Shown in pieces: positions 14,670 to 51,756 of a stretch of DNA of 64,000 bases (within the stretch, counting starts at the first letter, position 1; every line of letters starts with the position of its first letter). The DNA comes from Clostridiales bacterium (GTDB taxonomy: Bacteria; Bacillota; Clostridia; Christensenellales; CAG-314), in NCBI GenBank assembly GCA_004558105.1, contig SFEB01000004.1:5120-69119 (forward strand), written 5' to 3'. Made by a program: the position numbers and the translations under genes. The notes below the pieces were generated by a model. That model was given only the letters and a program-made list of their open reading frames with translations, made no database searches and was not told the DNA's origin.

Positions 14670-14721
14670 CCCCGTTTATACTCGTTTATCGGATAAAACC
14701 GTCTTTCACGGAGGATAAATA

Positions 14722-18476: not shown

Positions 18477-19811
18477 ATGCAAAAAGAATACTATTACAGA
18501 CTAAAAGACGAAATGATGGAAACGTTAATCAAAACGCTTTCCATAGATACCGTCCGTACCGCACCCGCAGACGGGGCGCCTTTCGGTAAAGGCGTGGCGG
18601 ATTGTCTCGCTTTCGTCCTGGACGTAGCGAAAAAAATGGGTTTTGAAACCTACAACTGCGACAATTACGCCGGTCACGTAGAATTCGGCGACGGTGAAGA
18701 AATCGTCGGCGTTCTCGGACATCTCGACGTCGTTCCCGTCACCGACGGTTGGACGACTCCTCCCTTTACCCCGACTATCCGCGACGGGAAACTGTACGCA
18801 CGCGGAGCAAGCGACGACAAAGGACCTATGATTGCCTGCCTGTACGCGTTAAAAGCATTAAAGGACAGCGGTTTTAAACCGTCAAAACGCATTCGCCTGA
18901 TCTTCGGTTGCGACGAAGAAACCAATATGGAATGCGTAAAATATTACAAAACAAAAATGCCCTTACCCGACGTCGCTTTCAGCCCCGACGGCGATTTTCC
19001 CGTCATCAACATCGAAAAAGGTATCTATGCCTTCGACCTCGACGTGGGAGAATTGCCCAAAGAAATCAAGCAAATGCACGCAGGTACCCGCGTTAACGTC
19101 GTTCCCGACCTCTGCGAAGTTACTCTTTGCGGTTGCGTAGACGAAAACCTTATCAAAAAGAGCGGTATCGAATACGAAAAGAACGAGGACGGGTGCTACC
19201 GTCTCACCACGCGTGGCGTTTCCTGCCACGGCGCAAGTCCGTATCTCGGCAAAAACGCAACGTGGCAGATGTTCGAAGGCTTGTCGGTAATTTTCCCCGA
19301 CAGTGAAACTTTGCGTTTCGTTGCAGACAAAATGTGCAAGGACGTGTACGGCGAAAAATGGGGTTTTGCTCTCCATGACCAACCGAGCGGAAAAATCACT
19401 CACAATATAGGCGTCGTCGACCTGGTGGACGGCCATTTGAAAATAAAACTCGACGTACGCTTTCCCGTTACCTTTAAAAGCGATTTCGTCCGCGAGTGCC
19501 TGCTGTCCAACAGCATTGCAAGTTTAAAAATCGACCAGAGCCATATAAAGGAACCGCTCTTCGTCAAAGCCGACGAACCGTTGGTCGTGTCTTTGCTTAA
19601 AATCTACAACGATTTTACCGGCAGTAACGCGCTTCCCCTCGCCATCGGCGGAGGAACGTATTCGAGAGTTCTGCCCAAATGCGTGGCGTTCGGCCCCGCC
19701 TTCCCGGGAGAAATGACGGCTATACACGAAAAAGACGAATGGATTTCTCTGGAAAACCTCGACAAAATGGCGTTGATGTACGCTCAGGCAATAGAAGAAT
19801 TGGCAAAATAA
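18477..19811 (+). CDS. pepV: M20 family dipeptidase (PepV/Sapep-like)
   Basis: Motifs GHLDVVP, RGASDDKGP, GCDEE. The start is moved to the ATG at 18477 (MQKEYYY), downstream of an AGAGG SD. Confidence 0.8.
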   Translation: MQKEYYYRLKDEMMETLIKTLSIDTVRTAPADGAPFGKGVADCLAFVLDVAKKMGFETYNCDNYAGHVEFGDGEEIVGVLGHLDVVPVTDGWTTPPFTPTIRDGKLYARGASDDKGPMIACLYALKALKDSGFKPSKRIRLIFGCDEETNMECVKYYKTKMPLPDVAFSPDGDFPVINIEKGIYAFDLDVGELPKEIKQMHAGTRVNVVPDLCEVTLCGCVDENLIKKSGIEYEKNEDGCYRLTTRGVSCHGASPYLGKNATWQMFEGLSVIFPDSETLRFVADKMCKDVYGEKWGFALHDQPSGKITHNIGVVDLVDGHLKIKLDVRFPVTFKSDFVRECLLSNSIASLKIDQSHIKEPLFVKADEPLVVSLLKIYNDFTGSNALPLAIGGGTYSRVLPKCVAFGPAFPGEMTAIHEKDEWISLENLDKMALMYAQAIEELAK

Positions 19812-33950: not shown

Positions 33951-34886
33951 GTGTTTAAATATTTTGATTTATTGAAAGAAATCGACGAATTCGAAAGACG
34001 CGGCGTAGAAGTCGGCAGCATTGGCAACAGTACCCTCGGTTTTGACACGCCTTATATCTTTATCGGCGACAAATCCAAAAACTGCATCGTCGTGACGGGA
34101 GCGATACACGCGCGTGAACACATTACCGCTTTGCTGGTGGTCAACCAGGCAAAACATCTGCTGAAAAACGCCGATTTAACCCTCCTGGGCGGTATCTACT
34201 TCATTCCCATGGTCAACGTTGACGGGGTACGGCTCTGCCAGGAAGGCGTGGGTTTCCTGACCGACAAACAACTCAAAAAAAACCTGATAAAAATCAACGG
34301 CGGCACGGACTTTTCGCTGTGGAAAGCCAATATAGCGGGCGTCGACCTCAACGTCAATTTCGACGCGCGGTGGGGACAGGGAAAAAGCAACGTCTTTTAC
34401 AAAGCCCCTGCCAACTACGTCGGCAAAAAACCCAACAGCGAAGTCGAAACGAAAAATCTCGTTCGTTTCACCCGTACCGTCAATCCGTTATCCACCGTCA
34501 GTTATCATTGCAAAGGCGAAGTCATTTTCTGGCGGTTTTTCCAAAAAGACAAACGCACCTTGTGGCAGCACTACTGCCTTGCGAAAAGTCTTTCCCAGGC
34601 TACGGGGTATCGCCTTATCGCGACCGAAGCAGGCAGTTGCGGCGGTTACAAGGACTGGTGTATTGACCGACTGGGCATTCCGGCGTTTACCGTAGAAGTG
34701 GGCAGCGACAAGTTTACCCACCCCTACCCTTACGACCAGTTCGAAGATATTTACAACAAAAACATAGACGTTCCGAGACGGTTGCTCAACACCGTCTGCC
34801 GCGAAAAAGAGAGGGCAAGTCAGAATGGATCAAAAGATAAAGATGATGAAACGGGCCTTATTCCAAGCGAAAAAAGCTTCCGCTGA
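33951..34886 (+). CDS. M14 family zinc carboxypeptidase (gamma-D-glutamyl-diamino-acid peptidase-like)
   Basis: 311 aa, GTG start. Zinc motif HAREHIT. The 3' end overlaps tadA by 62 nt. Confidence 0.7.
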   Translation: MFKYFDLLKEIDEFERRGVEVGSIGNSTLGFDTPYIFIGDKSKNCIVVTGAIHAREHITALLVVNQAKHLLKNADLTLLGGIYFIPMVNVDGVRLCQEGVGFLTDKQLKKNLIKINGGTDFSLWKANIAGVDLNVNFDARWGQGKSNVFYKAPANYVGKKPNSEVETKNLVRFTRTVNPLSTVSYHCKGEVIFWRFFQKDKRTLWQHYCLAKSLSQATGYRLIATEAGSCGGYKDWCIDRLGIPAFTVEVGSDKFTHPYPYDQFEDIYNKNIDVPRRLLNTVCREKERASQNGSKDKDDETGLIPSEKSFR

Positions 34887-35274
34887 GGATGAAGTCCCTA
34901 TCGGCGCCGTAATAGTCAAAGACGGCAAAGTCGTTTCCGTCGGACGAAACGAGCGCGACAAAAAACAAATCGCCACCAAACACGCCGAAATCGTCGCCAT
35001 CGAATCTGCATGCAGAAAACTCAAAAGCTGGCGTCTCAACGGTTGCGAACTGTACGTCACTTTGGAGCCGTGCGCGATGTGTCTGGGCGCATGTTTTAAC
35101 GCCCGCCTGGATAAAGTCTATTTTGGCGCCTACGACCCCCGAGGCGGCGCCTGCGGAAGCGTAATCGACCTGTCGATTGTCAACCAATTAAACCACAATC
35201 TAGAGGTCGAAGGCGGCATTCTCGCCGACGACTGCGCAAAACTGCTGAAAGATTTTTTCGCCGCCAAAAGATAG
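34825..35274 (+). CDS. tadA: tRNA adenosine(34) deaminase
   Basis: 149 aa. CDA-fold zinc motifs HAEIVAI and PCAMC. Confidence 0.9.
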   Translation: MDQKIKMMKRALFQAKKASAEDEVPIGAVIVKDGKVVSVGRNERDKKQIATKHAEIVAIESACRKLKSWRLNGCELYVTLEPCAMCLGACFNARLDKVYFGAYDPRGGACGSVIDLSIVNQLNHNLEVEGGILADDCAKLLKDFFAAKR

Positions 35275-35588
35275 TTTTTCGTTTTAACCTTTTTGTAACC
35301 GCTCTCACTTGCCGGTCGGCAGAAATCAACGGACGTTAAAAACCCTAACTCGCCTGACACAAAACGAATTCACAGGAAAACCAACGGAAAAGCCTTGATT
35401 TTTGCGTCAGAACAAACGCCGTAAAACTTTTAATAATAACGTTAATAGCGTCATAAAAAACTTATTCAAGATAAAACCTTTATTCGCATATATCCGTATA
35501 AAACGACACAATATAACCCTACATCCGAAAAACACAACAAAAGAGTATTCAAAAACGTAATATCGTATAAGATCTTATATCGGTAAAG

Positions 35589-35620
35589 AAATGCTGACGA
35601 AAATTTCGTCAGCATTTTAA
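35589..35620. terminator. Bidirectional hairpin terminator at the left edge of the gene desert
   Basis: About 12-bp stem AATGCTGACGAA / TTCGTCAGCATT, flanked by A- and T-rich runs. It lies 315 nt downstream of the tadA stop. Confidence 0.6.
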
Positions 35621-36065
35621 TTGTCGGAAAACATAGAAAATCAAACTACGAAACAGCAAAAACGTATCGTATTTTTCGTTTTAAAAACGGATTCTGCCTT
35701 TCAAAACCCGCTTACCTTTCCTTGCGGCATTAATTACCACAGGATACGATTCATTGACGTACAATGCAATTCACCAAGATTTCTATCGAACCGCGCCGCC
35801 GATAAACGTTTATAAACCCGTAAAATCCTTACATTTTTACCCTTTTAAACCCAACAACAATACCCGTTAATGAAATGACGGCTTCCCACAAGACCGTAAA
35901 AAAGTACTTCAACCAAATAACACTTATATCAGCACCGGTCAACGTACGTGCGCATTGCCAACGTTTTAACAATCATTAAATTAAATATAAACGTCTATTT
36001 CCCGAGCAACGCCCATGCCGAGACGATGCGCAAAACAATCGCGACGAATACCGCCGATTTGATAT

Positions 36066-36081
36066 TGTTTCACGTGAAACA
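36066..36081. other. parS: parS site 1 (ParB binding site)
   Basis: TGTTTCACGTGAAACA. Perfect 16-bp palindrome matching the Firmicute parS consensus TGTTNCACGTGAAACA. Confidence 0.85.
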
Positions 36082-36126
36082 AAAAGCGACAAAATACCCA
36101 TGCTATCGCCCGAAACCCACAATAAA

Positions 36127-36142
36127 TGTTTCACGTGAAACA
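36127..36142. other. parS: parS site 2
   Basis: TGTTTCACGTGAAACA. Identical to site 1 and 61 bp from it. Confidence 0.85.
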
Positions 36143-37002
36143 ATCAAACAACAGCAAGCAAAAACCAATATAACATAAAACCGCATATTTTCTCTGAATT
36201 TTAAAAAATAATGAAAACACAAAAAACAAGACAATTTTTACAAATAGTAGAAAAACATTGCATTTCGCTCTTATCCGACACAATAATACTTAATTTAAAA
36301 ACTTATTGATTAACAATTAATAAATTATTTCATTTTTGACGTAAACAACTTAGAAAATAATTTATTTGTTTATTTTTGGGTTTTGAAAATTTAATTGAAC
36401 TCAACAAGCGAACCTAAACCATACACAACTTAAACACCAAAAACAACAATAAACCCACTTCAAAAAACCAAATTGAAAACAAAAAAGACACAACACACAT
36501 ACGCCTCGCCGCAACATGTGCACACAACAACAAACCCCACAAAAGCCACAGCAATAATGAACATTTTGGCATTTTTTCGCTTTTAGAGAAAAAATTTTTA
36601 CAAAAATCGTATTATTGGGCGTTTTAAAAACTGAAAAAAGCCAGGTTTTTCCTTGTGTTGAGCGATTTTACCCCACCCTGAAACGCTCTCAGACAGAATT
36701 TTTTAAAACCTTCGGCGTTTTTGGCGCGATTTTGGTACCAATGTACCGGCTTTTCCGTACGTTTTTGAGCCCTAGCGAAAAGAGCACCGCACCAAAAAGA
36801 CACATACCGGTCGCACCGTCAGAAAAACCAAAACAACAAGAAAACTATAATACAACTTAAAACACAACGATTTACACATCAAATATTTTTATTTTACCAA
36901 CCAAAGCAAGGATTTACGCGCTTAAACGTATAAAAGCATAAAACACAACCCAAAAAAAGCAAACCACAACCGAACCTAAGCTCTTTTACCCGCTAAAAAT
37001 TG

Positions 37003-37018
37003 AGTTTCACGTGGAACA
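37003..37018. other. parS: parS site 3
   Basis: AGTTTCACGTGGAACA. This is the reverse-complement form of the B. subtilis TGTTCCACGTGAAACA type, with one flank mismatch. Confidence 0.8.
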
Positions 37019-37064
37019 TTCACACTAAAATACAATAAAAACGACTAGTTTTCAAGAAAAACAA

Positions 37065-37080
37065 CGTTTCACGTGAAACA
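37065..37080. other. parS: parS site 4
   Basis: CGTTTCACGTGAAACA. The 14-bp core is perfect and one outer base differs. Confidence 0.8.
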
Positions 37081-37166
37081 AACCCAAATAAGCCGCCTTA
37101 AAGCATCAGATTTATGCTATTTGCACAAAAACTATTAAGAATGTTGCTTTGTAATTAAAATTTTTA

Positions 37167-37182
37167 CGTTTCACGTGAAACT
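37167..37182. other. parS: parS site 5
   Basis: CGTTTCACGTGAAACT. The 14-bp core is perfect and both outer bases differ. Confidence 0.75.
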
Positions 37183-37251
37183 TGTTGTACTGTTTGTGCG
37201 CTTTTTGCCGTATTTGGTAGCATTAGGGGTGAATTAATTATTGTTTTTCTT

Positions 37252-37267
37252 TGTTTCACATGAAACA
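37252..37267. other. parS: parS site 6 (variant)
   Basis: TGTTTCACATGAAACA. A single central mismatch (CACATG instead of CACGTG). Confidence 0.6.
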
Positions 37268-37363
37268 ATCGTTAAATTGTGTTATTTGTCTTGCGATTTA
37301 TATTTTTTTGACGGAGTCTTTCGCTTTTTTGGGTTTTTTACGCCATATTTGGTGTTATTTTCT

Positions 37364-37379
37364 TGTTTCACGTGAAACT
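37364..37379. other. parS: parS site 7
   Basis: TGTTTCACGTGAAACT. One outer mismatch. Confidence 0.8.
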
Positions 37380-37656
37380 TGACGCTTTTGTATGGTTTGT
37401 TTTGGTTTTTTTTGCGTTATTTTTTCATTTTTTTGTGGGATATATTTACTTGTTTTGAGTGCTATTTTACTTTTTTGGAATAAAATTGGCATTATATCGA
37501 TGTTTTTTGGCTCAACATGGCTGTTTCCGATGTTTTTATTTGGTATCCGGGCTTAGATAAGTCTTAACCATATCGAGTAGCAATTTATTTGTACTGCTGT
37601 GCTCTGTTTTTTTGCATGTTTGTTTTGTCCGATTATTGATAAATTGCTTTAAATAA

Positions 37657-37695
37657 AAAATAATCTACACTTACATATTAAATGTAGATTATTTT
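37657..37695. terminator. Bidirectional AT-rich hairpin terminator at the right edge of the gene desert
   Basis: 13-bp stem AAAATAATCTACA / TGTAGATTATTTT with a 13-nt loop. It lies about 170 nt downstream of the yitT-family stop on the minus strand. Confidence 0.55.
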
Positions 37696-37866
37696 CATAT
37701 AAATGCTTAATATTTACGTTTTTTAATTAGTGTTTTGGATGTTATCTTGTAAATATTGTTTTGGATCGTGAACAATTCGCTTAAAAGTTTGCCTTTGTGT
37801 ATACTCTTTAAAAGTCTTTGTGACGTTATCTTGTGCGGTCTACCTGTTGCTTAGTCATCTTGTGGG

Positions 37867-38760
37867 TTATTTTATCTTTTTAAAATTACCTACCGTTTCG
37901 TTGACGTTTTCTGCCACGGCAAAAGTATTGTCGTATTTTTTTATTATCGATTGAAAATCAACCATCTGGTGCTTGTTGACGACGCAAAGTAAAATACTTT
38001 TTTCCTGTTGAGAGTATCCTCCGTATCCTACTATCCTGGTAGAGGTATGCTTCAATTTTGTAATAATTTCATCATTGATTTCTTCTGCGTGAGTCGTTAC
38101 CACGATAAATTTACATGCCGTTTTACAACCTCTGAGGATAAGATTACCTATAAAGTTTGATATAAAGGCGTAAGCGATACATTTGCATACCGGAAGGTAA
38201 TTCAATGCAATTTCGCTTGTTTTTTCGTTGATATCGGCGTAAACAAACAGCGAAGCTACGGCAACGGCGGCGTTTATTACGAAAGTGACGTAAAAAAAGT
38301 TCCACTGCGGCTTTTTGATACTTAAGAATTTTGACACCACGTCGGTACCGCCGGTAGACGCGCTCGCTTTGTACAAAAAGCCCGATACTACGCCGCATAT
38401 TGCCCCGGCTATAACGGCAGGAAAGACGTCGGTATCGGCGGCAACGTATTTAAAACGTTGTATATCCCATGCGCCCATCAAAAGGTAGAATAAAGAATAC
38501 GCCACGCAAAAAGTAAGCGTTTTGGCGGCATACTTTTTATCGATGAAGAAAAACGCAAATACGCACAGCGGAACGTTAATAATAAGAGACATGTATCCGA
38601 TACTGAATCCGCATTTATATTGTATCATCGTAGCGATGCCGTTAATGCCTGCCGGCGCAAAGTTGTTTTCTACGATAAAAAGCCGATAATCGAGCGCCAG
38701 CACTGCGCCCAAAACGATGACGAAAGCGTATTCTTTCGCCTTTGAAATAATTTTTTTCAT
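37867..38760 (-). CDS. YitT family membrane protein (DUF161 repeats plus C-terminal DUF2179)
   Basis: 297 aa, polytopic. Family hallmark STGGTDV. The C-terminal soluble domain (TRIVGYGGYSQQEKSILLCVVNKHQMVDFQSIIKKYDNTFAVAENVNETVGNF) fits DUF2179. Confidence 0.75.
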   Translation of the reverse strand: MKKIISKAKEYAFVIVLGAVLALDYRLFIVENNFAPAGINGIATMIQYKCGFSIGYMSLIINVPLCVFAFFFIDKKYAAKTLTFCVAYSLFYLLMGAWDIQRFKYVAADTDVFPAVIAGAICGVVSGFLYKASASTGGTDVVSKFLSIKKPQWNFFYVTFVINAAVAVASLFVYADINEKTSEIALNYLPVCKCIAYAFISNFIGNLILRGCKTACKFIVVTTHAEEINDEIITKLKHTSTRIVGYGGYSQQEKSILLCVVNKHQMVDFQSIIKKYDNTFAVAENVNETVGNFKKIK

Positions 38761-39036
38761 TAAAAAAGCCCTCTTTCCCTAAAGAAAAAGGACACAACAA
38801 ACCTGTCGTCAGAACGACCTATCGGACAAATCGGTTGTATCCTCCTCACCAAAGAATATTTCCCTTCACATGCGGCAGGTCTCCTGACTCGTGATTTGCA
38901 CCGGGCAACCCGGAGCAAACGGATTCCTTCTCGGACGACGTCCAATGGGTAACAATCCTTTAACACTTACAGTAGTGGTAGCTGTCCCGGTTTTTCACCG
39001 GGTTCCCTCTTTTCGGCGCGAAAAACGCACCGCATG
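38761..39036 (-). promoter_or_regulatory. Cobalamin (B12) riboswitch with expression platform
   Basis: Minus-strand RNA contains AGAGGGAACCCGGUGAAAAACCGGGACAGCUACCACUACUGUAA. It also contains CAUUGGACGUCGUCCGAGAAGG and the B12 box AGUCAGGAGACCUGCC. P1 is closed by CAUGCGG (39036-39030) pairing with CCGCAUG (38875-38869). A downstream hairpin UUUUCUUU-AGGG-AAAGAGGG plus a U-run overlaps the SD. Confidence 0.85.
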
Positions 39037-39051
39037 TTTATTGACCGTATA

Positions 39052-39201: not shown

Positions 39202-39927
39202 TCAGCCAACGGAAATTTTCGTCAGCACCCATTCGACTATCGGTTTTAAAATACTGCTGCCTATCGCGCTTTCGGTAAATACGGCGTTGCTGACAAAGTT
39301 TCCGATAAATCCGACAAAACTGCCGACTATCGTTAAAACGGCAAGAACACAGACGACTATCGCCGTTATTTTTATTCCGCCCATTGCCATCCCAAGCAGA
39401 CGGTTGATGGTGTTCAATCCCGCTATTTTAGCAACTTTTTTCAATATCGCTTTCAGGATCGCTATCACTATCATTATCAAAATGAACAGAACGATAAAAA
39501 CCAGCACGTTGTTTACCGTTTGCGTCAACTGTTGAGGCAAAACTTCTCTGAGCGTCGTTTCTCCTTCCGGAAAATTCTTAAAAATCCCGTTAAACAAGCC
39601 TAATTCCACGATAAATCCGGGAACGCCCAATTGTTTTATAACTTCGTTTGTTTTTTCTTTATTTTCCTCAACGTCGCTCCAGTTGACCGGCATATCGTAA
39701 TATTCGCTGCCACCCAGTTTTTCGTCGGCAATTTGTTCTATTTTCGTATATATAGCTCCGCTGTCGTCGGGAAAAATTTTCGCTACCGAACCGCACAAAG
39801 AAGTTGAAAGGTAAATAGCGACAAATACCCCAAGTAAACCGAATAATTGATCGACAAAACCTTTTACGGCGCCTATTATCATAAAGACCGCAAGCACTAT
39901 TAAAAACGCTACGTCAAACCAGTTCAT
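39202..39927 (-). CDS. cvpA: CvpA family membrane protein
   Basis: 241 aa. N-terminus MNWFDVAFLIVLAVFMIIGAVKGF is typical of the colicin V production protein family. Confidence 0.75.
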   Translation of the reverse strand: MNWFDVAFLIVLAVFMIIGAVKGFVDQLFGLLGVFVAIYLSTSLCGSVAKIFPDDSGAIYTKIEQIADEKLGGSEYYDMPVNWSDVEENKEKTNEVIKQLGVPGFIVELGLFNGIFKNFPEGETTLREVLPQQLTQTVNNVLVFIVLFILIMIVIAILKAILKKVAKIAGLNTINRLLGMAMGGIKITAIVVCVLAVLTIVGSFVGFIGNFVSNAVFTESAIGSSILKPIVEWVLTKISVG

Positions 39928-39980: not shown

Positions 39981-41345
39981 TTATTTTCCGAAAATCATGT
40001 CTTTTATATCTTTTGCCTGCGCCGCATATCTGGGGTCGTTGGCAACGAGGTCCGCCATCTTATCTCTCGTATACATTATCGTTGTGTGATCTCTTCCGCC
40101 GAAGTACTGACCTATCGACAACAAGGGGAGAGTAAGCAACTCAGTAACAAGATATACGCACATTTGTCTGGGTTCTACTATTTCTTTTGTCTTTTTTTTG
40201 CCTATTATATCTTTTTTTGTAACGTTGGGGTAATATTTACAGACGCAATCAACTATTTTATCGATTGTAACGAGTTCCGTTTTATCGTCGTTATAATCTT
40301 TCAAAGCCGAATTTACGACTTCCATATCGTTGACGTTTTTACAGATAAGTTGCGAATAGCAGATTATTTTAGTAAGAACGCCTTTCATTTCTCTGATATT
40401 CGTCGTAACCTTATTGGCTATAAGTTTTAATATTTCGTCGTCGATATTTTGTTTTTCCGCCAACGCCTCGCTTTTTAAAATTGCTATTCTTGTTTCCAAA
40501 TCGGGTTCGCTTATATCCGCCACCACGCCGCCCTGAAAACGCGTTCTCAATCTTTCTTCCAACGGCGCTATTTCCTGAGGCGGGCGGTCGGAACAAATGA
40601 TAATTTGTTTATCTTTGTAGTACAAATCGTTGAAGGTGTGGAATAATTCTTCTTGCGTGGATACCGTCTTAGCTATAAACTGAATATCGTCTATCATCAA
40701 AACGTCTACGCTGCGGTATCTCTTTCGGAATTCCTTCATTTCGTCGGTATGCTTATTACCGCGCAACGCTTCAATCAGTTCGTTCGTAAACCGTTCGCAA
40801 CTGATATTCATACACCTCAGTTTCGGATTGGTTTTTCTTATATGATTGCCTATTGCGTTAAGCAAGTGTGTTTTTCCGAGTCCGACGCCGCCGTATATAA
40901 ACAACGGGTTATATTTCGTTCCTGGGTTTTGCGCTACAGCCTTACTCGCTGCCGCGGCAAACTCGTTGCTTTTGCCGACGATAAAATTGTCGAAGGTACA
41001 CTTTGGAGAAAAACTGCAAGTCGTTTCTTCCACGATTATGTTTTCACTGTTTATTTCGCCTATATCCGCATTAGCGTATTTTTCGTATTTTTCCCTTTCT
41101 TCCTCTAAAATAAACAGCACACCCTCGTTGTGAGGCATTACTTTTTTACAACTTTCGGAAATAACGTCGATATATCTTTCTTCCACGACTCGTTTTTTTG
41201 CGGAATTCTCGCACAACAAGACCACGTTATCCTCGTATATACATACGGGTACCAATCCTTCTATCCATGATTCGTAAGCAAACGCGGTAACGCGCGCCTG
41301 AATTTCTATCAATACGTTTTCCCATACCTGTGTAGTTGAAATCAT
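39981..41345 (-). CDS. dnaA: Chromosomal replication initiator protein DnaA
   Basis: 454 aa. Walker A GGVGLGKTHLL, Walker B LMIDDIQF, sensor and box VII regions, and the C-terminal DNA-binding domain (GGRDHTTIMY). Confidence 0.95.
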   Translation of the reverse strand: MISTTQVWENVLIEIQARVTAFAYESWIEGLVPVCIYEDNVVLLCENSAKKRVVEERYIDVISESCKKVMPHNEGVLFILEEEREKYEKYANADIGEINSENIIVEETTCSFSPKCTFDNFIVGKSNEFAAAASKAVAQNPGTKYNPLFIYGGVGLGKTHLLNAIGNHIRKTNPKLRCMNISCERFTNELIEALRGNKHTDEMKEFRKRYRSVDVLMIDDIQFIAKTVSTQEELFHTFNDLYYKDKQIIICSDRPPQEIAPLEERLRTRFQGGVVADISEPDLETRIAILKSEALAEKQNIDDEILKLIANKVTTNIREMKGVLTKIICYSQLICKNVNDMEVVNSALKDYNDDKTELVTIDKIVDCVCKYYPNVTKKDIIGKKKTKEIVEPRQMCVYLVTELLTLPLLSIGQYFGGRDHTTIMYTRDKMADLVANDPRYAAQAKDIKDMIFGK

Positions 41346-41757
41346 TTTTTTATTTCCCTTTGTTAAAATTTAGATACTTTCACTTATAAAATAATTGTAA
41401 CATAAGAATTCGTTTTGTCAACTTAATATTTTTATCTTTTCGTTAATTTTTTTTATAAATTTTTCTTGTGTTTTTATCAACGCTTGCTTTTTAACGGGTT
41501 TTGGTGTATAATAACTAACCGAAAAATCTTTTTATTTTTTTTTCCACAAATTAAAGATTAAAATCTTGATACTTTGTGAATAAAAAACCGACTTATTAAA
41601 GATTTTTCCATACTCGTTTTAAGGAAAAAGAACATCGTTTTTTGCTTTATTTTTAAAGACGTTTATCTTCTTTAAAAAAAAGTTTTCAACAATTCTACAT
41701 TACCTACTGTTACTACTACTTAATCAAAGAACCTTAATAAAAAGGAGGACGGAAAAA
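41346..41757. other. oriC: AT-rich dnaA-dnaN intergenic region, candidate oriC
   Basis: 412 bp, very AT-rich. One-mismatch DnaA boxes TTTTCCACA (41540-41548) and TGTGAATAA (41575-41583), plus several two-mismatch boxes. Plus-strand promoter TTGCTT-17-TATAAT at about 41485-41513. Trinucleotide-periodic run TAC TGT TAC TAC TAC TTA at 41705-41722. Confidence 0.5.
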
Positions 41758-42861
41758 ATGAAATTAATTTGCGAAGGTCTCGATTTAAGCGACGCCATCA
41801 ATAAAGTCAGCAGAGCGTTACCCGCCAAAGCGGTAAACCCCATACTCGAAGGTATTCTTTTTTCGGCAAAAGGAACGAAACTTACGGTTTACGCTTCCGA
41901 TACGGAGATATCAATCAAAAAGACGATAAACGCCGAAATAATAGAAGAAGGTTCTATACTTTTACCCGGAAGATTTATAGGAGAATACATGCGTAAACTT
42001 TCCGATCAACAGATAGAACTTTTCACCAACGAAAAAAATCAGTTGCGTATAAAATACGGAGACAGCGAAGGATTCGTACAGGTACTGGATAAAAACGAAT
42101 ATCCGTTTAACGAACAGGGAAAAGGCGATTATAAAGTCACGATAAATCAAAAAGACCTTAAAGACGCGATAGAAAAAACGATATTTTCAGTCGCACAGGA
42201 CGACACCCGTCCTGTGTTAAAAGGTTGTTTAATGGAATTTGAGGGCAGACGTATGACGGTTGTCGCGCTTGACGGATACCGTCTTGCGTTAGTTAAAAAG
42301 CCCTTAACGCAGGAAGCGGAAAAGAAAAACATAATAGTACCTGCAAGAAGTTTATACGAAGCGTCCCGCCTGATGGAAAGTCAGGAAGACGAAGCGGAAA
42401 TGTTCGTTACCGACAAACAGGTAGTGTTCGATATCAAAGATACGGAAGTTACCGCGCGTTTAATAAACGGAGAATTCGTAAATTATCGTCAGATATTGCC
42501 CGACAACTACGTTTCCAACGTCGTAATAAACAAAAAACAGTTTGAAGAAAGTTTAGACAGAGCGAGCCTTCCCAGCCGTCAGGAAAAAAACAATCTAGTA
42601 AAGCTAGAAGTAAAAGAAAAAGTCATTACCATCAGCGGAACGTCGGAGTTAAGTAATATAAAAGAGAATCTCGCAATAAGTCTTAAAGGTAAGGACATAA
42701 CCATAGCGTTTAACGCAAAGTATCTTGCCGACTGTCTGAGAGTGATGGAAAACGAGTTTATAAAGATAAACTTTACGTCTTCGGTATCCAGCACGACAAT
42801 TACCCCGTGCGAGTCCGACGAATGTTTGTATCTGGTTTTACCCGTAAGATTAGTAGGCTAA
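41758..42861 (+). CDS. dnaN: DNA polymerase III subunit beta (sliding clamp)
   Basis: 367 aa. Typical three-domain clamp pattern (MKLICEGLDL..., LDGYRLA, INGEFVNYRQILP). SD AAAGGAGG. Confidence 0.95.
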   Translation: MKLICEGLDLSDAINKVSRALPAKAVNPILEGILFSAKGTKLTVYASDTEISIKKTINAEIIEEGSILLPGRFIGEYMRKLSDQQIELFTNEKNQLRIKYGDSEGFVQVLDKNEYPFNEQGKGDYKVTINQKDLKDAIEKTIFSVAQDDTRPVLKGCLMEFEGRRMTVVALDGYRLALVKKPLTQEAEKKNIIVPARSLYEASRLMESQEDEAEMFVTDKQVVFDIKDTEVTARLINGEFVNYRQILPDNYVSNVVINKKQFEESLDRASLPSRQEKNNLVKLEVKEKVITISGTSELSNIKENLAISLKGKDITIAFNAKYLADCLRVMENEFIKINFTSSVSSTTITPCESDECLYLVLPVRLVG

Positions 42862-42884
42862 AAAAAGAAAAACATTCAAAATAT

Positions 42885-42913
42885 TTGACAAAAGAACTTA
42901 AAAACACTATAAT
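42885..42913 (+). promoter_or_regulatory. Consensus sigma-A promoter of rpmH-rnpA
   Basis: TTGACA, a 17-nt spacer, then TATAAT. Both hexamers are perfect. Confidence 0.7.
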
Positions 42914-42976
42914 ATTTCAGCTGTACTTTTTTAGGTACGTTAAAAAGAAATCTACGGATAAAAGGAGTATATAAAA

Positions 42977-43111
42977 ATGAAAAGAACTTACCAACCCAAA
43001 AAGAGACAACGCAATAAGGTACATGGCTTTCGTAAAAGAATGTCCACCACCGGCGGAAGAAGAACGTTAGCCCGCAGACGCAACAAGGGCCGCAAAAAAT
43101 TGTCGGCTTAA
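42977..43111 (+). CDS. rpmH: 50S ribosomal protein L34
   Basis: Own translation: [44 protein letters not shown] (44 aa), below the ORF-track size cutoff. SD AAAGGAG. Confidence 0.95.
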
Positions 43112-43130
43112 TCGGCGCGTAACGTAAAGA

Positions 43131-43460
43131 GTGAAAAAGATTTATCGTTTAAAAAGCAATTTGCAGTATAAAATGGTATACAAAAAGGGTAACGTCTTGT
43201 CTAACAAGGCGTTTACTCTCATTTTTGTTAGAAACAATTTTAATACGGCAAAGTTTGGTTTTAATATTTCAGGCAAATACGGCAAAGCCGTCAAACGCAA
43301 CAAACTCCGCAGACAACTGAAAGCCGTCTGTTCGGAATTTGCGGCGACAACAAAGGCGGGTTTTTACGTTTTACGGCCTCGCTTTTATGCTTGCGATGCG
43401 CCGACTTTTGAAGTATTGAAAAAAAGCGTAAAAGAGCTTTTTGACCGGGTAGACAAATGA
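43131..43460 (+). CDS. rnpA: Ribonuclease P protein component
   Basis: 109 aa, GTG start, basic. The RNR-like motif KAVKRNKLRRQLK is present. Position after rpmH. Confidence 0.9.
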   Translation: MKKIYRLKSNLQYKMVYKKGNVLSNKAFTLIFVRNNFNTAKFGFNISGKYGKAVKRNKLRRQLKAVCSEFAATTKAGFYVLRPRFYACDAPTFEVLKKSVKELFDRVDK

Positions 43461-43699
43461 AGTACGTATGCATTGCTTTGTTAAAACTCTACAAAGCGAC
43501 GATAAGTAAAATAAAACCTAAAACCTGTCGTTTTCAGCCGTCTTGTTCGGTTTATTCTATGGAAAGTTATTATTATCACGGGTTTTTTAAAGGGACGTGG
43601 CTGACAATCAAAAGATTGTTCAGGTGTAATCCGTGGTCAAAGGGCGGGTTTGATCCGACACCGTACGACTATAAGGGAGTTATTAAATGGTCAATTTAA
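43457..43699 (+). CDS. yidD: Membrane protein insertion efficiency factor YidD
   Basis: 80 aa. Signature CRFQPSCSVY ... RCNPW. Confidence 0.9.
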   Translation: MKYVCIALLKLYKATISKIKPKTCRFQPSCSVYSMESYYYHGFFKGTWLTIKRLFRCNPWSKGGFDPTPYDYKGVIKWSI

Positions 43700-45009
43700 C
43701 GCAATTATTGAGCGTCGGCATTGACGCCGTCGTTACCGTATTGGAAAAATGGGGCGTAACGGGGTTGAATATCAATTTTGATTTTCAGGCTTCGGAAAAC
43801 CTTATTTCCAGATTGTTGATGTGGATATACGGGTGGATGGGTAACTACGGATGGACGATAATTTTATTCACCGTCGTACTCAGACTAATTACGCTTCCGT
43901 TGGACTTCTGGCAAAAGTTTTCAATGAAGAAAAACAGTAAAATAATGGAAGAAATTACTCCCATTATGACCAAAATAGATAAGGCTTACGGCGATAACGT
44001 GCAGGCAGCCAACGCCGAGAAACAAAAGATAATGAAAAAGTACCGCTACAACCCGGCGGCGTCATGTTTGCCGATGTTGGTTACTATGGTGGTCTTTATC
44101 ATTATGTTCAGCGGTCTCAACAACTGCAGCAGCGCGCTCAATATAAAAACGTATCAGAGTATTCAGGAAGCGTACCTTCGCGGATATTATTCCGTAATAA
44201 CCGACGAAACAAAAACGGGCGTTGCCATATTGGACAACGAGGGCAACGAAATTTTAAACAAAGACGGTCAACCTACCACTTTGATTTATTACGCGGAATG
44301 GAAAAACAATAAAACTACGGAAAACGAAAACGAATTTACTACGGCGCAGGTAACGGCGTTGAATGCGGCGTATAACGCCGTGACGACCGAGGCTGAGTAC
44401 AAAGCGAAAAGAGACGCTGTCATGATATTCAGCGAAAGCGGCGAAGGGTTTTTGTGGATAAAGAGTTTGTGGCGCAGCGACAACTGGCAAAAAGTTTTAC
44501 CGGACAACGCAACCAAGTTTGCGAGTACGTTGTCGGGAAATAAAGACGTTTCGGGGCTTACAAGCGACGTTATATACGACAGTATTTACGATGCGTTTAC
44601 CAATCCGGACAAGTATTTCGATACCAACGACCCCGTTCAGGCAGAACAGTTGGTAAAAGCCAAAAAATCACTCGGTTACGGCAAAGGAATGTGGAACGGG
44701 TTGCTTATTTTGCCTGTTCTGGCTATCGCGCTGACATGGCTGACAACAAAAATTAACGGTAAAAACCAAGGAACGGTAGGCACGGGGGCGCAACTCGAAT
44801 CCGCGCAAAAACAACAGAAGACGATGACGATAATTATGCCCGTTATGATGGGTATATTTGCGTTGTTTTATTCCGCGGCGTTTGCGTTATACCTCGTTGC
44901 GAGCAACGCTATCAGTATACTGTTTAACCTTATCGAGACACCTCTCGTAAACAAGATGGCGGAAAAAACGAAGAGCGTCATAAAAAACGACGCAAGTTAT
45001 AGGAGATAA
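43687..45009 (+). CDS. yidC: Membrane protein insertase YidC (long form with large inserted loop)
   Basis: 440 aa. Conserved core (GWTIILFTVVLRLITLPL, KKYRYNPAASCLPMLV, C-terminal TMs) interrupted by an insertion of about 170 aa. Confidence 0.85.
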   Translation: MVNLTQLLSVGIDAVVTVLEKWGVTGLNINFDFQASENLISRLLMWIYGWMGNYGWTIILFTVVLRLITLPLDFWQKFSMKKNSKIMEEITPIMTKIDKAYGDNVQAANAEKQKIMKKYRYNPAASCLPMLVTMVVFIIMFSGLNNCSSALNIKTYQSIQEAYLRGYYSVITDETKTGVAILDNEGNEILNKDGQPTTLIYYAEWKNNKTTENENEFTTAQVTALNAAYNAVTTEAEYKAKRDAVMIFSESGEGFLWIKSLWRSDNWQKVLPDNATKFASTLSGNKDVSGLTSDVIYDSIYDAFTNPDKYFDTNDPVQAEQLVKAKKSLGYGKGMWNGLLILPVLAIALTWLTTKINGKNQGTVGTGAQLESAQKQQKTMTIIMPVMMGIFALFYSAAFALYLVASNAISILFNLIETPLVNKMAEKTKSVIKNDASYRR

Positions 45010-49942: not shown

Positions 49943-50713
49943 ATGTCAAAGATTATTGCCATCAGCAACCAGAAAGGCGGAGTAGGCAAAACCACAACCG
50001 CCATCAATATGTCGGCTTGTATTGCCGCAACGGGGAGAAAGGTTCTGCTTGTAGACCTCGATCCGCAAGGTAACGCCACCACGGGTATCGGCATTGACAA
50101 GAGTAAGTTGGAAAAAAACATTTACGACGTTTTGCTATTGAACGAACCCGTTGCAAACGTCGTTTTGCCCACGCAGGTAGAAAATCTCGACGTTCTTCCC
50201 TGTAACAAAGATCTCGTCGGAGCGGAAATTCCGATGAGCGGCTTTGCAAAGAGAGAATTCGTGTTGAAAACGGCGCTCGAAAGCGTAGCAGACAGGTACG
50301 ATTACGTCTTTATCGACTGTCCGCCGTCTCTGGGTTTGCTGACGCTCAACGCATTGACGGCATGCGACGGGGTTATTATTCCCATTCAAAGCGAATTTTT
50401 CGCATTGGAAGGTCTCAGCCAGCTTATTTACACGATTCGCCTGGTTACCAAGCACACCAACCCCGACCTGAAGGTCAAGGGGGTAGTGATGACTATGTAC
50501 GACAGCCGCAGCATTTTAACGAGACAGGTTACGGCGGAAATTCAGAAGTATTTCGGTACGGCAGTATACAGCGTACCCGTCCCCCGCAACATCAAGGTGA
50601 CGGAAGCGCCAAGTTTCGGCGTGCCGGTATCGGTCCATGCGCCTCGCAGCAGCGGCGCCGTAGCGTATCAGAGAATAACGAAACAGTTTTTAGCAAGAGA
50701 GGAGGGTAATTAA
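49943..50713 (+). CDS. parA: Chromosome partitioning ATPase ParA (Soj)
   Basis: 256 aa. Deviant Walker A KGGVGKTTT, followed by DLDPQGN. Confidence 0.95.
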   Translation: MSKIIAISNQKGGVGKTTTAINMSACIAATGRKVLLVDLDPQGNATTGIGIDKSKLEKNIYDVLLLNEPVANVVLPTQVENLDVLPCNKDLVGAEIPMSGFAKREFVLKTALESVADRYDYVFIDCPPSLGLLTLNALTACDGVIIPIQSEFFALEGLSQLIYTIRLVTKHTNPDLKVKGVVMTMYDSRSILTRQVTAEIQKYFGTAVYSVPVPRNIKVTEAPSFGVPVSVHAPRSSGAVAYQRITKQFLAREEGN

Positions 50714-51756
50714 TGGCAGCGCAAAGAAAAGGTCTTGGCAGAGGTTTGTCTGCTTTACTGGGTATGAACGACATGGGCGACGACGTTTTGTCCACACCCG
50801 TAGCCCCCGGTTTGAATACGGAACCGCAACAGGAACAACCGCGTGAAGAATTTGTCGATGTCGGCTTGACGACGGAAGACGTTACGGGCGTTGCGGATAT
50901 GGATTTTGCCCCGGCGGAACCGACGGAAGAGGAACAACCGCAGGAAAAAATAGTGGCGGTCAATATTGCCGTTTCGGATATCGACCCCAACTACGAGCAA
51001 CCGCGTAAAAACTTTGACGAAGCCGCTCTCAACGAGTTGGCGGAAAGCATTCGTCAGCACGGAGTTATCCAACCCATCGTAGTAGTGCGCATGGGTATGC
51101 GCTTTATGATTATTTCGGGCGAAAGACGTTGGCGCGCAAGCAAACTTGCCAACAAGACGACCATCCCCGCAATAATCAAAGACTATACTCCGCAACAAAT
51201 CAAAGAAATCGCCATCATCGAAAACTTGCAGAGAGAAGACCTCAACCCCGTGGAAGCGGCGCGAGCAATCAAGCAGTTGATGGAAGAATTCAATATGACG
51301 CAGGAAATGGCGGCAGATCGTATCGGCAAGAGCCGCAGCGCAATCGCCAATACACTCCGTTTGCTGACCTTGGACGAAAAGGTGCTGGATCTTATCGCCA
51401 AAGGCGAACTGTCTGCGGGACACGGCAGGGCTCTGGTTGTGATAGAAAACAAAAACGATCAGGTTGCCATCGCCCAAAAAGCTCGCGACAGCCAGATGAG
51501 CGTAAGAGAACTTGAAAAGAAGGTCAAGGATTATCTCAACCCCAAAAATGACGAGAAAGAACTCGCCCGCAAGAAGGAGGTTTGTCTCGAACTTAAAGAC
51601 CTCGTAGTAAACATGCAAAGAGCGTTTGCCACCAAAGTCACGGCGGTCGGCAATAATAAAAAAGGTCGTATCTGTATAGATTATTTTTCCAGCGACGACC
51701 TCGACCGCATCTGTACTATGATAAGAGACTGGCAAGACAATCTGCCCACGGCGTAA
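50713..51756 (+). CDS. parB: Chromosome partitioning protein ParB (Spo0J) with extended acidic linker
   Basis: 347 aa. N-terminal KGLGRGLSALL peptide, ParB/Srx CTPase box GERRWRA, HTH region (QEMAADRIGKSRSAIANTLRLL), and the ENLQREDL motif. Confidence 0.95.
   Translation: MAAQRKGLGRGLSALLGMNDMGDDVLSTPVAPGLNTEPQQEQPREEFVDVGLTTEDVTGVADMDFAPAEPTEEEQPQEKIVAVNIAVSDIDPNYEQPRKNFDEAALNELAESIRQHGVIQPIVVVRMGMRFMIISGERRWRASKLANKTTIPAIIKDYTPQQIKEIAIIENLQREDLNPVEAARAIKQLMEEFNMTQEMAADRIGKSRSAIANTLRLLTLDEKVLDLIAKGELSAGHGRALVVIENKNDQVAIAQKARDSQMSVRELEKKVKDYLNPKNDEKELARKKEVCLELKDLVVNMQRAFATKVTAVGNNKKGRICIDYFSSDDLDRICTMIRDWQDNLPTA

Follow-up and report, generated by a model that had tools for sequence, protein, structure and literature searches.

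Mirror-image strand composition around an origin-proximal parS array in a Clostridiales bacterium

ParB-parS complexes load SMC and organise the origin region, and RNA polymerase is an obstacle both to SMC and to ParB spreading, which raises the question of how cells keep the loading site clear. In Streptococcus pneumoniae, where a single parS lies beside the com operon, the ParB-parS complex reportedly modulates read-through transcription. Plasmid centromere arrays (F sopC, P1 parS, and similar) are non-coding and hold multiple partition-protein sites in regular tandem repeats. Origin-proximal parS clusters occur in Bacillus subtilis, Caulobacter, Corynebacterium, and gut Clostridia (Livny et al. 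2007 as cited in PMC10197239; PMC10197239 for gut bacteria).

Here we describe a parS array in a window of 64,000 nt, the whole stretch analysed, from Clostridiales bacterium GCA_004558105.1 (contig SFEB01000004.1, positions 5,120-69,119, forward strand). Like other chromosomal ParABS centromeres, it carries the 16-bp palindrome TGTTTCACGTGAAACA in several copies a few kb from oriC with parA and parB nearby, and it would be expected to load ParB, recruit SMC, and help segregate the origin. Unlike them, it places all seven sites in one 2.6-kb gene-free module rather than in or between ordinary genes, and this module is mirror-symmetric in strand composition, bounded by hairpins, and interrupted by a conserved island. 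With the plasmid arrays it shares multiple partition-protein sites in non-coding DNA, although its sites are unevenly spaced (61-876 bp), no sequence repeats between them, and the locus is chromosomal. The S. pneumoniae case sets a precedent for a chromosomal ParB-parS complex interacting with incoming transcription, but at a single parS at the com operon with no described compositional feature. The first-pass annotation of this DNA knew of no parS locus with such an architecture, and we likewise found no description of one in the searchable literature.

A gene-free interval carrying seven parS sites

The interval, or desert, comprises 2592 bp (35275-37866) between tadA and a YitT-family gene, which converge on it as initially reported; the second-largest intergenic gap in the window is 594 bp. 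Its features and those of the surrounding origin region are as follows.

34825-35274, plus strand: tadA, left flank of the desert
35275-35588, plus strand: tadA-proximal spacer, top strand already A/C-rich (GC skew -0.12 to -0.22, AT skew +0.14 to +0.25)
35589-35620: left edge hairpin, a 14-bp perfect inverted repeat, terminator-like on both strands
35621-36560, plus strand: left (distal) arm segment 1 (A.42, C.24, G.11, T.23), carrying parS-1 and parS-2
36066-36081: parS-1, perfect TGTTTCACGTGAAACA
36127-36142: parS-2, perfect, 61 bp from parS-1
36553-36790, minus strand: conserved island, unskewed, the sole part of the desert alignable with relatives
36790-37000, plus strand: left (distal) arm segment 2, A/C-rich (C/G 2.8, GC skew -0.48, AT skew +0.44)
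37003-37018: parS-3, 2 mismatches
37065-37080: parS-4, 1 mismatch; another strain has T in place of the core G at 37066
37081-37166: changeover zone between parS-4 and parS-5, where cumulative (G+T)-(A+C) bottoms out at 37141
37160-37656, plus strand: right (proximal) arm, T/G-rich and C-poor (A.21, C.12, G.19, T.49)
37167-37182: parS-5, 2 mismatches
37252-37267: parS-6, 1 mismatch
37364-37379: parS-7, 1 mismatch
37657-37695: right edge hairpin, on the minus strand a well-formed predicted intrinsic terminator of yitT, weaker on the plus strand
37867-38760, minus strand: YitT-family gene, right flank of the desert
41346-41757: divergent dnaA-dnaN spacer, 412 bp, 23% GC, two DnaA boxes with 1 mismatch
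49943-51756, plus strand: parA and parB, cognate partition proteins by Pfam

The longest frames in the desert encode 64, 76, and 81 aa. Neither the 81- and 76-aa frames nor a 52-aa frame on the minus strand matched Pfam, and tblastn of the desert, using as queries every ORF from nine related loci that reached 80 aa, produced only noise, with none of hundreds of queries falling below E=0.001 per query. An Rfam scan returned nothing at the gathering threshold and only noise at E<=10, tRNA and tmRNA scans of the desert were empty, and no plasmid or phage similarity was found. On these searches, a hidden or decayed gene, a known RNA family, and a mobile element were rejected, and they uphold the original description of a stretch without a credible gene.

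The seven parS sites, with 0-2 mismatches to the 16-bp palindrome TGTTNCACGTGAAACA that marks chromosomal ParABS centromeres, fall within 1.3 kb. The whole window holds eight matches, seven of them in the desert, versus 0.58 expected by chance window-wide. The partition genes, encoding a ParA-type ATPase (49943-50713; Pfam AAA_31/ParA) and a ParB with ParB_N, HTH_ParB, and ParB_C domains (50713-51756; Pfam), lie in the same origin region as the array, which is separated by 2.1 kb from the dnaA 3' end and by about 4.4 kb from the spacer between dnaA and dnaN. Measured from oriC, the module lies at about 2-6 kb and the parS sites at about 4-5.3 kb. From its sequence, the interval is well supported as the main chromosomal centromere of the organism, a predicted ParB-loading array of seven parS sites, at which SMC would also be loaded.

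Each edge of the desert had been assigned a bidirectional hairpin terminator. Both hairpins do fold strongly on both strands (z -5.4 to -6.2; for the left one, -20.9 kcal/mol on plus and -17.2 kcal/mol on minus, z -5.5 and -6.2). Their U-runs are less even, being good for 37695-37657 on the minus strand and moderate in the other cases, and the right hairpin is a weaker terminator on the plus strand than on the minus strand. Neither passed a consensus terminator scan, on loop length or GC-pair criteria; the left one was missed because its loop is too short.

The island has blastn matches in three related loci (L001, L010, and L011). On its minus strand, a box, TTCTGYCTGAGAGCGTTT, confined to this clade, is followed by a hairpin (about 36641-36655) and a T-run. 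Six pairs of this hairpin are kept through two-sided changes (alignments A1-A3), and it alone has compensatory support within an otherwise weak whole-island consensus RNA structure (-6 kcal/mol). The island is also a hot spot of within-species differences. Only two haplotype groups were recovered within the species, with no alignable outgroup by which to polarise the SNPs and so separate mutation from selection. The island could be a small RNA or a protein-binding site.

Mirror-image composition of the arms

The top strand is A/C-rich up to about 37141 (left arm: A.40, C.23, G.13, T.25) and G/T-rich beyond, which places the changeover within the 37100-37160 first estimated and inside the parS array. 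In 100-nt windows, the skew reaches a minimum of -0.72 at 36398, in left arm segment 1, and a maximum of +0.64 at 37379, in the right arm, versus extremes of -0.54 and +0.42 elsewhere in the window, where local extremes arise because of short A-rich leaders before start codons. The earlier hand counts, 9 G and 14 T in 36401-36540 and 9 A+C in 37381-37440, were exact. The arrangement amounts to a two-fold compositional symmetry: on both sides, strands running 5' to 3' toward the array are A-rich and G-poor, and outward strands are T/G-rich and C-poor. The V-shaped drop and rise of cumulative skew totals 702 in the desert versus 184±77 (maximum 368) in 563 other 2592-nt stretches, with its lowest point among the parS sites, in keeping with the original view that the asymmetry is centred on them.

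The claim that the skew far exceeds replication-associated values also held up: the arms average ±0.25 to 0.34 and peak at ±0.7, versus only about ±0.13 at fourfold sites of genes in the window. The window has 18 further intergenic regions of 100 nt or more, none of which reached this amplitude (all within ±0.23), and a general trait of this genome's non-coding DNA or 3' flanks was therefore rejected. The arms are not the diverged halves of a large inverted repeat, as the left arm, compared with the reverse-complemented right arm after masking of parS sites, scored 19 versus 18.3±2.3 in shuffles.

One explanation for this composition is a DNA-structural role, in which arms rich in A-tracts and poor in palindromes and promoters form an intrinsically bent or protein-free track, which would either hold the centromere at the tip of a plectoneme or free ParB-CTP clamp sliding and SMC loading of roadblocks. 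CAAAAA and AAAAAC are the top enriched words in all six arms examined (35-36 occurrences versus about 21 expected), and a strongly skewed strand cannot form inverted repeats, so parS is the only palindrome that stands out in such a context. No discrete repeated protein-binding motif emerged from the k-mer analysis, which yielded just A-tracts punctuated by C, and such a motif was rejected. T-tracts showed helical phasing at 10.5 bp in the right arm (P=0.007), in the left segments (P=0.05-0.08), and in the arm and array of L007, a related locus (P<0.003), judged against a second-order Markov null because mononucleotide shuffles overstate the signal. However, under this conservative null the phasing is weak and inconsistent; the sister species L001 lacks it, and the dnaA-dnaN spacer, an ordinary one, shows a comparable signal (P=0.03). 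Curvature was rejected on these grounds. A trait of the duplex would need neither one strand polarity over 1.5 kb nor a mirror switch, and large parS arrays in the metagenomic loci L061 (unskewed) and L054 (weakly skewed) lack such arms. We regard a structural role as improbable.

The origin of replication and related loci

The A/C to G/T switch has the sign expected of an origin, and the desert lies near dnaA. The first-pass annotation had also considered an origin-type skew switch, together with an absence of DnaA boxes. That absence was confirmed (none of TTATCCACA with <=1 mismatch in 35275-37866, versus two in the dnaA-dnaN spacer); the origin reading itself failed. In the window and in all relatives examined, 1-3 DnaA boxes lie upstream of dnaA, while the parS intervals of the window and of 7 of 8 comparison loci have none; boxes in parS intervals occur in L009 (one) and in the unrelated L043 (three, interspersed with its parS cluster at a similar switch). 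Left arm segment 1 has a core of 19% GC (36200-36400), as might suit the AT-rich unwinding element of an origin, but no DnaA trios or boxes adjoin it. The GC skew of the window changes sign at 41-42 kb, about 4.4 kb away from the desert's switch. The coding-strand fourfold GC skew of dnaA and cvpA is -0.02±0.04, versus -0.38±0.03 for head-on genes beyond the parS region, and the fourfold skews of yitT-cvpA-dnaA, and of dnaA and cvpA in relatives, fit co-directional replication.

These values place the origin upstream of dnaA, and oriC is most likely the dnaA-dnaN spacer. The right arm therefore opposes the replication skew of its replichore, and with this sign the mirror symmetry cannot stem from chromosome replication. 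In addition, replication contributes about 0 to AT skew at fourfold sites, compared with AT skews of ±0.2 to 0.5 in the arms. That the changeover marks an origin of any kind, whether the true oriC, a second or former one, or a DnaA-independent start, is thus highly improbable. The pattern cautions that a local skew switch or a parS cluster, taken by itself, is no safe basis for assigning an origin.

The sister species L001 (DnaA 96% identical) is diverged to saturation at fourfold sites (39-43% identity), and its arms cannot be aligned with those of the window. It nevertheless has the same order of elements: a distal parS pair, an A/C tract, the island, a second A/C tract, a central parS cluster, the switch, a G/T arm, and a hairpin, which has the same stem core at the matching edge and a U-rich tail on the outward strand only. 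Its flanking genes differ and diverge from the desert, so no annotated gene reads in, and the skew is still present. As the initial reader had proposed looking for, the pattern rather than the sequence is conserved; this comparison indicates that something maintains the composition, centred on the array, while the sequence turns over.

In L007 (DnaA 86%), an A/C arm reaching -0.64 follows cvpA and leads into four parS sites, a G/T arm faces a convergent tatD, and a MatE gene occupies the position equivalent to the desert. This MatE was among the tblastn queries described above, and its intact gene has a skew of only +0.19; decay of a membrane-protein gene cannot yield the larger arm skew and was discarded as its source. 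The parS sites of the closer relatives L009, L010, L015, and L019 show little skew. The amplitude in the desert lies about 5 standard deviations outside a survey of 87 other parS clusters, none of which, as parS-pair loci, had both flanks skewed like the desert; across this survey and another of 53 clusters, similar ones were outliers only, which excludes a general property of parS clusters. Strand-polar parS arrays also appear in two other lineages, namely L043 and the related pair L130 and L050. Two of these arrays, that of L043 and array 1 of L050, are entered by a gene transcribed into a G/T-sense tract.

We considered whether the module arose by neutral array growth, through tandem duplication of parS with a low-complexity spacer and inversion of a block between palindromic parS sites. 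The parS flanks share short similarity in inverted orientation (I1, I2), pair spacings of 58-64 bp recur in the window, L001, and L007, and the locus is a rearrangement hot spot whose flanking genes differ among these three. Arrays of 11-29 canonical parS are found in the metagenomic loci L054, L061, L130, and L050, and in the related L130 and L050, 38/40 spacers share one polarity, as duplication predicts. Set against this, the masked arms are no more similar than shuffles, the switch falls inside a spacer rather than at a parS, the window and L001 share polarity and layout despite saturated neutral sites, and the origin of the spacer skew itself is left unexplained. Neutral growth seems quite improbable.

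Read-in transcription and a possible barrier

The first-pass annotation held that a transcript entering from either flank would be C-rich, G-poor, and unstructured, the signature of a Rho utilization (rut) site, and that the arms insulate the loading zone. RNA read inward from the most skewed tracts has folding energies of -5 to -17 kcal/mol per 150 nt, versus -34 in genes, with RNA from the plus strand of left arm segment 1 nearly unstructured; read-out RNAs fold better. G makes up 0.11-0.12 of the inward strands versus 0.23 in the window. These parts of the proposal stood. The inward strand is rich in A, not in C: the C fraction is 0.23-0.25 in the left arm and 0.19 in the right arm versus 0.24 in the window, and YC dimers, the preferred ligand of the Rho primary binding site, occur at 0.07-0.10 per nt versus 0.11. 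C/G is 2.0-5.1 on the left and 1.7 on the right, and 80-nt windows with C>=25% and C/G>=2.5 on the inward strand number 30 in the left arm and 0 in the right. No rho gene is present in the 64-kb window.

The desert thus resembles rut sites in that its RNA is untranslated (no credible ORF), G-poor (C/G 1.7-5.1), and unstructured over hundreds of nt. It differs from them in that neither C nor YC dimers are raised, and in that its A-rich tracts are 0.5-1.5 kb long, paired, and convergent around a DNA-binding site; Rho action here is a prediction. As a role for the arms, insulation is plausible but weaker than originally stated, given these C and YC values and the diverging flanking genes of L001, where the skew persists.

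As our leading explanation, though one less likely than not, we tentatively propose that the arms form a direction-selective transcription barrier protecting the ParB/SMC loading zone. RNA polymerase moving inward, from a flanking gene or a spurious promoter in AT-rich DNA, would make untranslated, G-poor, near-unstructured RNA. Such RNA would be a preferred substrate of factor-dependent (Rho) termination and a poor R-loop former, so inward transcription would be aborted before colliding with ParB clamps or loading SMC. Outward transcription would go unpenalised and be halted only by the two edge hairpins. The array, the ParA/ParB genes, the composition, the predicted absence of RNA structure, the edge hairpins, the pattern kept without the sequence, and the desert not being the origin are observations; a part played by Rho or any other factor, and a benefit through protected ParB/SMC loading, are inferred.

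Counted in favour of a barrier are the parS sites with parA and parB, the extreme skew centred on them, weak folding and low G of the inward RNA, both edge hairpins, the layout kept in L001, the arms of L007, a skew derived neither from replication nor from an inverted duplication, and its rarity in the surveys. Several observations weigh against it. The inward RNA is not C-rich, and the right arm has no simple-rut window; L001 has no inward-reading annotated gene, while in L043 and array 1 of L050 a gene enters the G/T-sense tract. Putative intrinsic terminators already separate each arm from its flanking gene, which would make the arms superfluous against read-through. Little skew is seen at parS in the closer relatives L009, L010, L015, and L019, and the left arm shift is a plain inward G-to-A (outward C-to-T) change, as mutation would also give.

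A different account takes the skew as the mutational footprint of outward non-coding transcription, or of persistent R-loops, starting within the array. The outward non-template strand would be exposed as single-stranded DNA, and C-to-T and A-to-G deamination would leave it T/G-rich and C-poor, making the skew a by-product or a marker of centromere-associated transcription. Relative to the window, the inward strand of the left arm gains A (+0.12) and loses G (-0.10) with C and T unchanged, and the outward strand of the right arm loses C (-0.12) and gains T (+0.23); in the peak tract, the outward strand has C.06, A.10, G.33, T.51. Such a composition is a classic single-strand deamination signature, and its polarity is correct on both sides. 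The edge hairpins could terminate outward RNAs in the window, L001, and L007, in L001 with one predicted to act outward only. In L007, a predicted consensus promoter (TTGAAA-17-TATAAT) 40 nt past the last parS would fire outward, and tadA, adjoining the left arm, exceeds all other genes of the window in fourfold skew (-0.42).

However, an amplitude of this size means that the strands differ 3- to 8-fold, well beyond the transcription-associated skews known in bacteria. The skew is also patchy, nearly nil at 36200-36400 with no obvious constraint, when transcript-wide pressure should be uniform, and mutation does not predict helical phasing of A/T-tracts. Promoter prediction in the desert gave 7 promoter-like sites versus 9.8 expected, not above shuffles, with no convincing outward promoter. 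We therefore consider a deamination footprint unlikely.

Returning to selected composition, we tentatively suggest, at no more than modest odds, that some bacteria have a "regional" centromere, in which parS sites sit in a strand-polar non-coding module whose polarity is selected as composition. It may serve as a one-way transcription valve, with entry blocked and exit allowed, or else polarise a process moving relative to the ParB/SMC loading site, and it may have arisen in unrelated lineages (the clade of the window, L043, and the related L130 and L050). If a barrier exists, a centromere with compositional polarity, kept through full sequence turnover, would be a testable cis-acting answer to how the loading site is kept clear. 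If the skew is instead a deamination footprint, it would point to a bacterial centromere that is strongly transcribed as non-coding RNA or exposed as single strands, likewise a new finding. Either way, the skew pattern would offer a cheap sequence signature for such centromeres in uncultured genomes.

Gene content of the parS region

The window covers the origin region of a chromosome from a gut member of the Clostridia. Among public sequences, those most closely related to it are metagenome-assembled genomes that carry the label "uncultured Subdoligranulum sp." or "Clostridiales bacterium".

Features of the origin region
34825-35274, + strand: tadA, left neighbour of the desert
35275-37866: desert, without a credible gene
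36066, 36127, 37003, 37065, 37167, 37252, 37364: seven parS sites
37867-38760, - strand: YitT-family membrane gene, right neighbour of the desert
38857-39049, - strand: cobalamin riboswitch (84 bits), about 100 nt upstream of the YitT-family gene
39202-39927, - strand: cvpA
39981-41345, - strand: dnaA
dnaA-dnaN spacer: 412 bp, 23% GC
41758-42861, + strand: dnaN, then rnpA, yidC, jag, mnmE, mnmG, rsmG, parA and parB on the same strand
49943-50713, + strand: parA
50713-51756, + strand: parB

Neither strand of the desert carries a credible gene. Its longest frames are 64, 76 and 81 aa, and a Pfam scan of the 76- and 81-aa frames and of a 52-aa minus-strand frame gave no match. Searches of the desert found no Rfam family, no plasmid or phage similarity and no detectable trace of the genes that border parS in relatives. 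Among the other intergenic gaps of the window, the largest measures 594 bp. The first-pass annotation had described a gene desert with converging flanks and bidirectional edge hairpins, and this description was borne out: tadA lies on the plus strand and the YitT-family gene on the minus strand, and both hairpins fold strongly on both strands. The number of parS matches expected by chance in the entire window is 0.58.

Pairs of parS sites 58-64 bp apart (about six helical turns) recur in three species, with unconserved intervening spacers: 36066/36127 and 37003/37065 in the window, 15010/15072 in the sister species L001, and 12915/12979/13040 in the relative L007. At 37066, the other strain group (L017 and L018) carries T in place of the core G of parS-4, a change that should weaken this site, and strains of the species appear to differ in their number of parS sites.

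The origin gene order is unusual (39981-45009), with dnaA divergent from dnaN; it is common to relatives down to about 75% DnaA identity, where rpmH lies between dnaN and rnpA. The riboswitch suggests B12-dependent control of the YitT-family protein.

Strand composition of the arms and position of oriC

The top strand of the desert is A/C-rich on the left (left arm) and G/T-rich on the right (right arm). To the left of the cumulative-skew minimum (37141), base frequencies are A.40, C.23, G.13 and T.25; to its right they are A.21, C.12, G.19 and T.49. This minimum falls between the parS sites at 37065 and 37167, where the changeover had been placed by eye, and the earlier hand counts of base composition were exact. 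In 100-nt windows, (G+T)-(A+C) skew (hereafter skew, unless GC or AT is named) reached -0.72 and +0.64 in the desert versus -0.54 and +0.42 elsewhere in the window. The V-shaped skew excursion was 702, compared to 184±77 (maximum 368) in other equal-length stretches, and the 18 other intergenic regions stayed within ±0.23. Fourfold-degenerate sites in genes showed a skew of only about ±0.13, and the asymmetry thus goes beyond replication-associated skew, as had been proposed. Among window genes, the strongest fourfold skew was that of tadA, which adjoins the left arm (GC skew -0.54; (G+T)-(A+C) -0.42); on this small sample (n=66), the skewing process of the left arm may extend into the gene.

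Relative to the window average, almost the sole change in the left arm is G to A on the inward strand, read 5' to 3' toward the array (A +0.12, G -0.10), while the outward strand of the right arm has lost C (-0.12) and gained T (+0.23). This leaves the inward strands rich in A and poor in G, but not rich in C. Inward-strand C is 0.23-0.25 in the left arm and 0.19 in the right, YC dimers occur at 0.07-0.10 per nt in the arms versus 0.11, and 80-nt windows meeting a "rut-like" criterion were confined to the left arm. Predicted inward RNAs are almost unstructured, and outward RNAs less so. The proposal that the arms are rut-type Rho insulators is weakened by the C and YC content and survives on the G-poor, unstructured inward RNA.

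The words enriched in the arms are A-tracts bounded by C, and helical phasing is weak. A DNA-structural role for the arms is improbable. An inverted duplication was rejected as the origin of the arms, as the left arm was no closer to the reverse complement of the right arm (parS masked) than shuffles were.

Four lines of evidence place oriC in the dnaA-dnaN spacer. Allowing one mismatch, DnaA boxes are absent from the desert, as reported earlier, and two are present in the spacer. Every relative examined has one to three boxes upstream of dnaA, and none was found in relatives' parS intervals except one in L009. GC skew in the window is negative to about 41 kb and positive past 42 kb. Fourfold sites were used to tell gene-orientation effects apart from replication effects: yitT, cvpA and dnaA in the window have a fourfold skew like that of left-replichore genes replicated co-directionally. 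Pooled over five relatives, coding-strand GC skew at fourfold sites was -0.02±0.04 for dnaA and cvpA and -0.07±0.03 for dnaN-side genes, and -0.38±0.03 for genes past the parS region that read toward it. Forks therefore start upstream of dnaA and traverse the desert from right to left, which makes the right arm opposite in sign to replication skew. At fourfold sites, replication contributes about zero to AT skew, yet AT skew in the arms is ±0.2 to 0.5. The reading of the changeover as an origin-type skew switch was thus rejected, and a cryptic origin in the desert is highly improbable.

Four further DnaA boxes, three direct (TTATCCACT, TTATCCACC, TTATCCACA) and one inverted, lie within 55 bp at 17158-17212, in the 594-bp spacer that precedes a radC-like gene (17574-18422). 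Being far from the skew switch, they are probably a DnaA-regulated promoter or box cluster and not oriC. In relatives, the parS region has a radC/M20/radical-SAM/tatD block as its immediate neighbour.

Conservation and rarity of the skew pattern

Two other strains of the species (98.3-98.5% identity over the aligned region) keep the desert. In the sister species L001, DnaA is 96% identical to that of the window and fourfold sites only 39-43% (saturation). Its desert, about 1.8 kb long, aligns with the window only at the parS sites and at a single island of some 190 nt. Features follow one another in the same order in both: two distal parS sites (47 bp apart in L001), an A/C tract, the island, an A/C-leaning stretch, the central parS cluster, the changeover (adjoining this cluster in L001), a G/T arm and a hairpin, which at the matching edge shares the stem core of the window's. 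The flanking genes of L001 differ from those of the window and are transcribed away from the desert. Comparison with relatives, suggested in the first-pass annotation as a check on pattern over sequence, thus found layout and polarity kept between the unalignable arms of the window and L001; the skew pattern is maintained, and it belongs to the parS array and not to the flanking genes. L007 (86% DnaA identity) is intermediate, with an A/C arm (-0.64) after cvpA, four perfect parS sites, a consensus promoter driving a MatE gene outward, a degenerate parS site and a G/T arm facing tatD. Four other relatives (L009, L010, L015, L019) have one to four parS sites in the same neighbourhood and little skew.

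The L001 parS variants at 14707-15085 are GTTTCCCGTGAAAC (twice), GTTTCCCGCGAAAC and GTTTCGCGTGAAAC, and three variant sites have the common flank ATTTATGC. The C at the sixth core position resembles that of Noc-binding sites. A decayed copy with this flank is kept in the window at about 37108-37132, exactly at the changeover.

Positions of the conserved island
Window: 36553-36790
L001, sister species: 15341-15527
L010, relative: 8985-9085
L011, relative: 13975-14063

The island is without skew. On its minus strand, an 18-nt box (TTCTGYCTGAGAGCGTTT) precedes a hairpin, kept through compensatory changes, and a T-run. Possible identities of the island are a small RNA of about 70 nt on the minus strand and a protein-binding site. 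In L010 and L011 the island is inverted with respect to dnaA. It is also the hot spot of differences between same-species strains: about 37 of the 56 in the desert fall in 36475-36785.

One scan of public metagenomes, which targeted pairs of perfect parS cores separated by 50-80 bp, yielded 120 loci. The flank skew difference (right minus left, 300 nt) averaged -0.007 (sd 0.119, n=87), compared to +0.63 in the window; over 1200 nt, the sd was 0.093 (n=53). In the 300-nt survey, none of the 87 loci had the mirror pattern (both flanks beyond ±0.2), and none had its reverse. Resemblance to the window was seen at three loci. In L043, the origin region of a distant Firmicute (YidC identity only 29%), the left side is A/C-rich and the right side, where GC skew reaches +0.74, is G/T-rich; three DnaA boxes lie among its parS sites. 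L130 and L050, which are related to each other, carry 14 and 29 parS sites, with A/C richness on the same strand in 38 of 40 spacers. The other large arrays, L054 and L061, have weak or no skew. Gene-free parS arrays are therefore not new in themselves, and strand-polar ones are uncommon. No published description of a strand-polar parS array was found in the literature searched, in agreement with the earlier judgement. A history of array growth is quite improbable as the source of the pattern.

The G/T arm of L043 contains direct repeats of about 110 nt at 2280-2560 (..TTGATTGAGAGAT..GTTTGTTGTG..) and short strings like those of the window's right arm, e.g. GGTTTGTTTTG, which may reflect chance in G/T-rich DNA. 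The arrays of L130 (1913 nt) and L050 (6229 nt) are very dense and belong to a lineage with high-GC genes; unskewed repeat units of about 130 nt with a long inverted repeat are scattered among their spacers. In L004, a Bacilli genome bin, four GTTCCACGTGAAAC sites at exactly 53-bp spacing (19006-19165) run up to the contig end, which suggests that assemblies break within such arrays.

Possible function of the arms

A strand bias that is consistent and reverses at a centre points to a vectorial process with the array as its midpoint and, with chromosome replication excluded, transcription is the obvious candidate. RNA that is G-poor, unstructured and untranslated is a preferred Rho substrate and a poor R-loop former. 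Our preferred reading, held tentatively, is that the arms may form a direction-selective transcription barrier. Inward transcripts would have these properties, and inward polymerases would be removed before they reach ParB clamps and SMC in the course of loading. Transcription in the outward direction would be permitted as far as the edge hairpins, which would stop it. Even with diverging flanking genes, as in L001, such a barrier would be useful because of spurious or antisense initiation in AT-rich DNA. We place low confidence in it because C and YC content are unremarkable, genes read into the G/T sense at some loci, and putative intrinsic terminators already guard the flanks.

The main rival explains the skew as the footprint of deamination left by outward non-coding transcription or R-loops. 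It fits the base changes well, but it sits poorly with the amplitude and patchiness of the skew, and we consider it unlikely. The rest of the probability, beyond the barrier and its rivals, falls to some explanation not yet thought of. Whatever produces its polarity, the feature is a chromosomal parS centromere built as a compositionally two-fold-symmetric non-coding module, and this module is worth following up experimentally.
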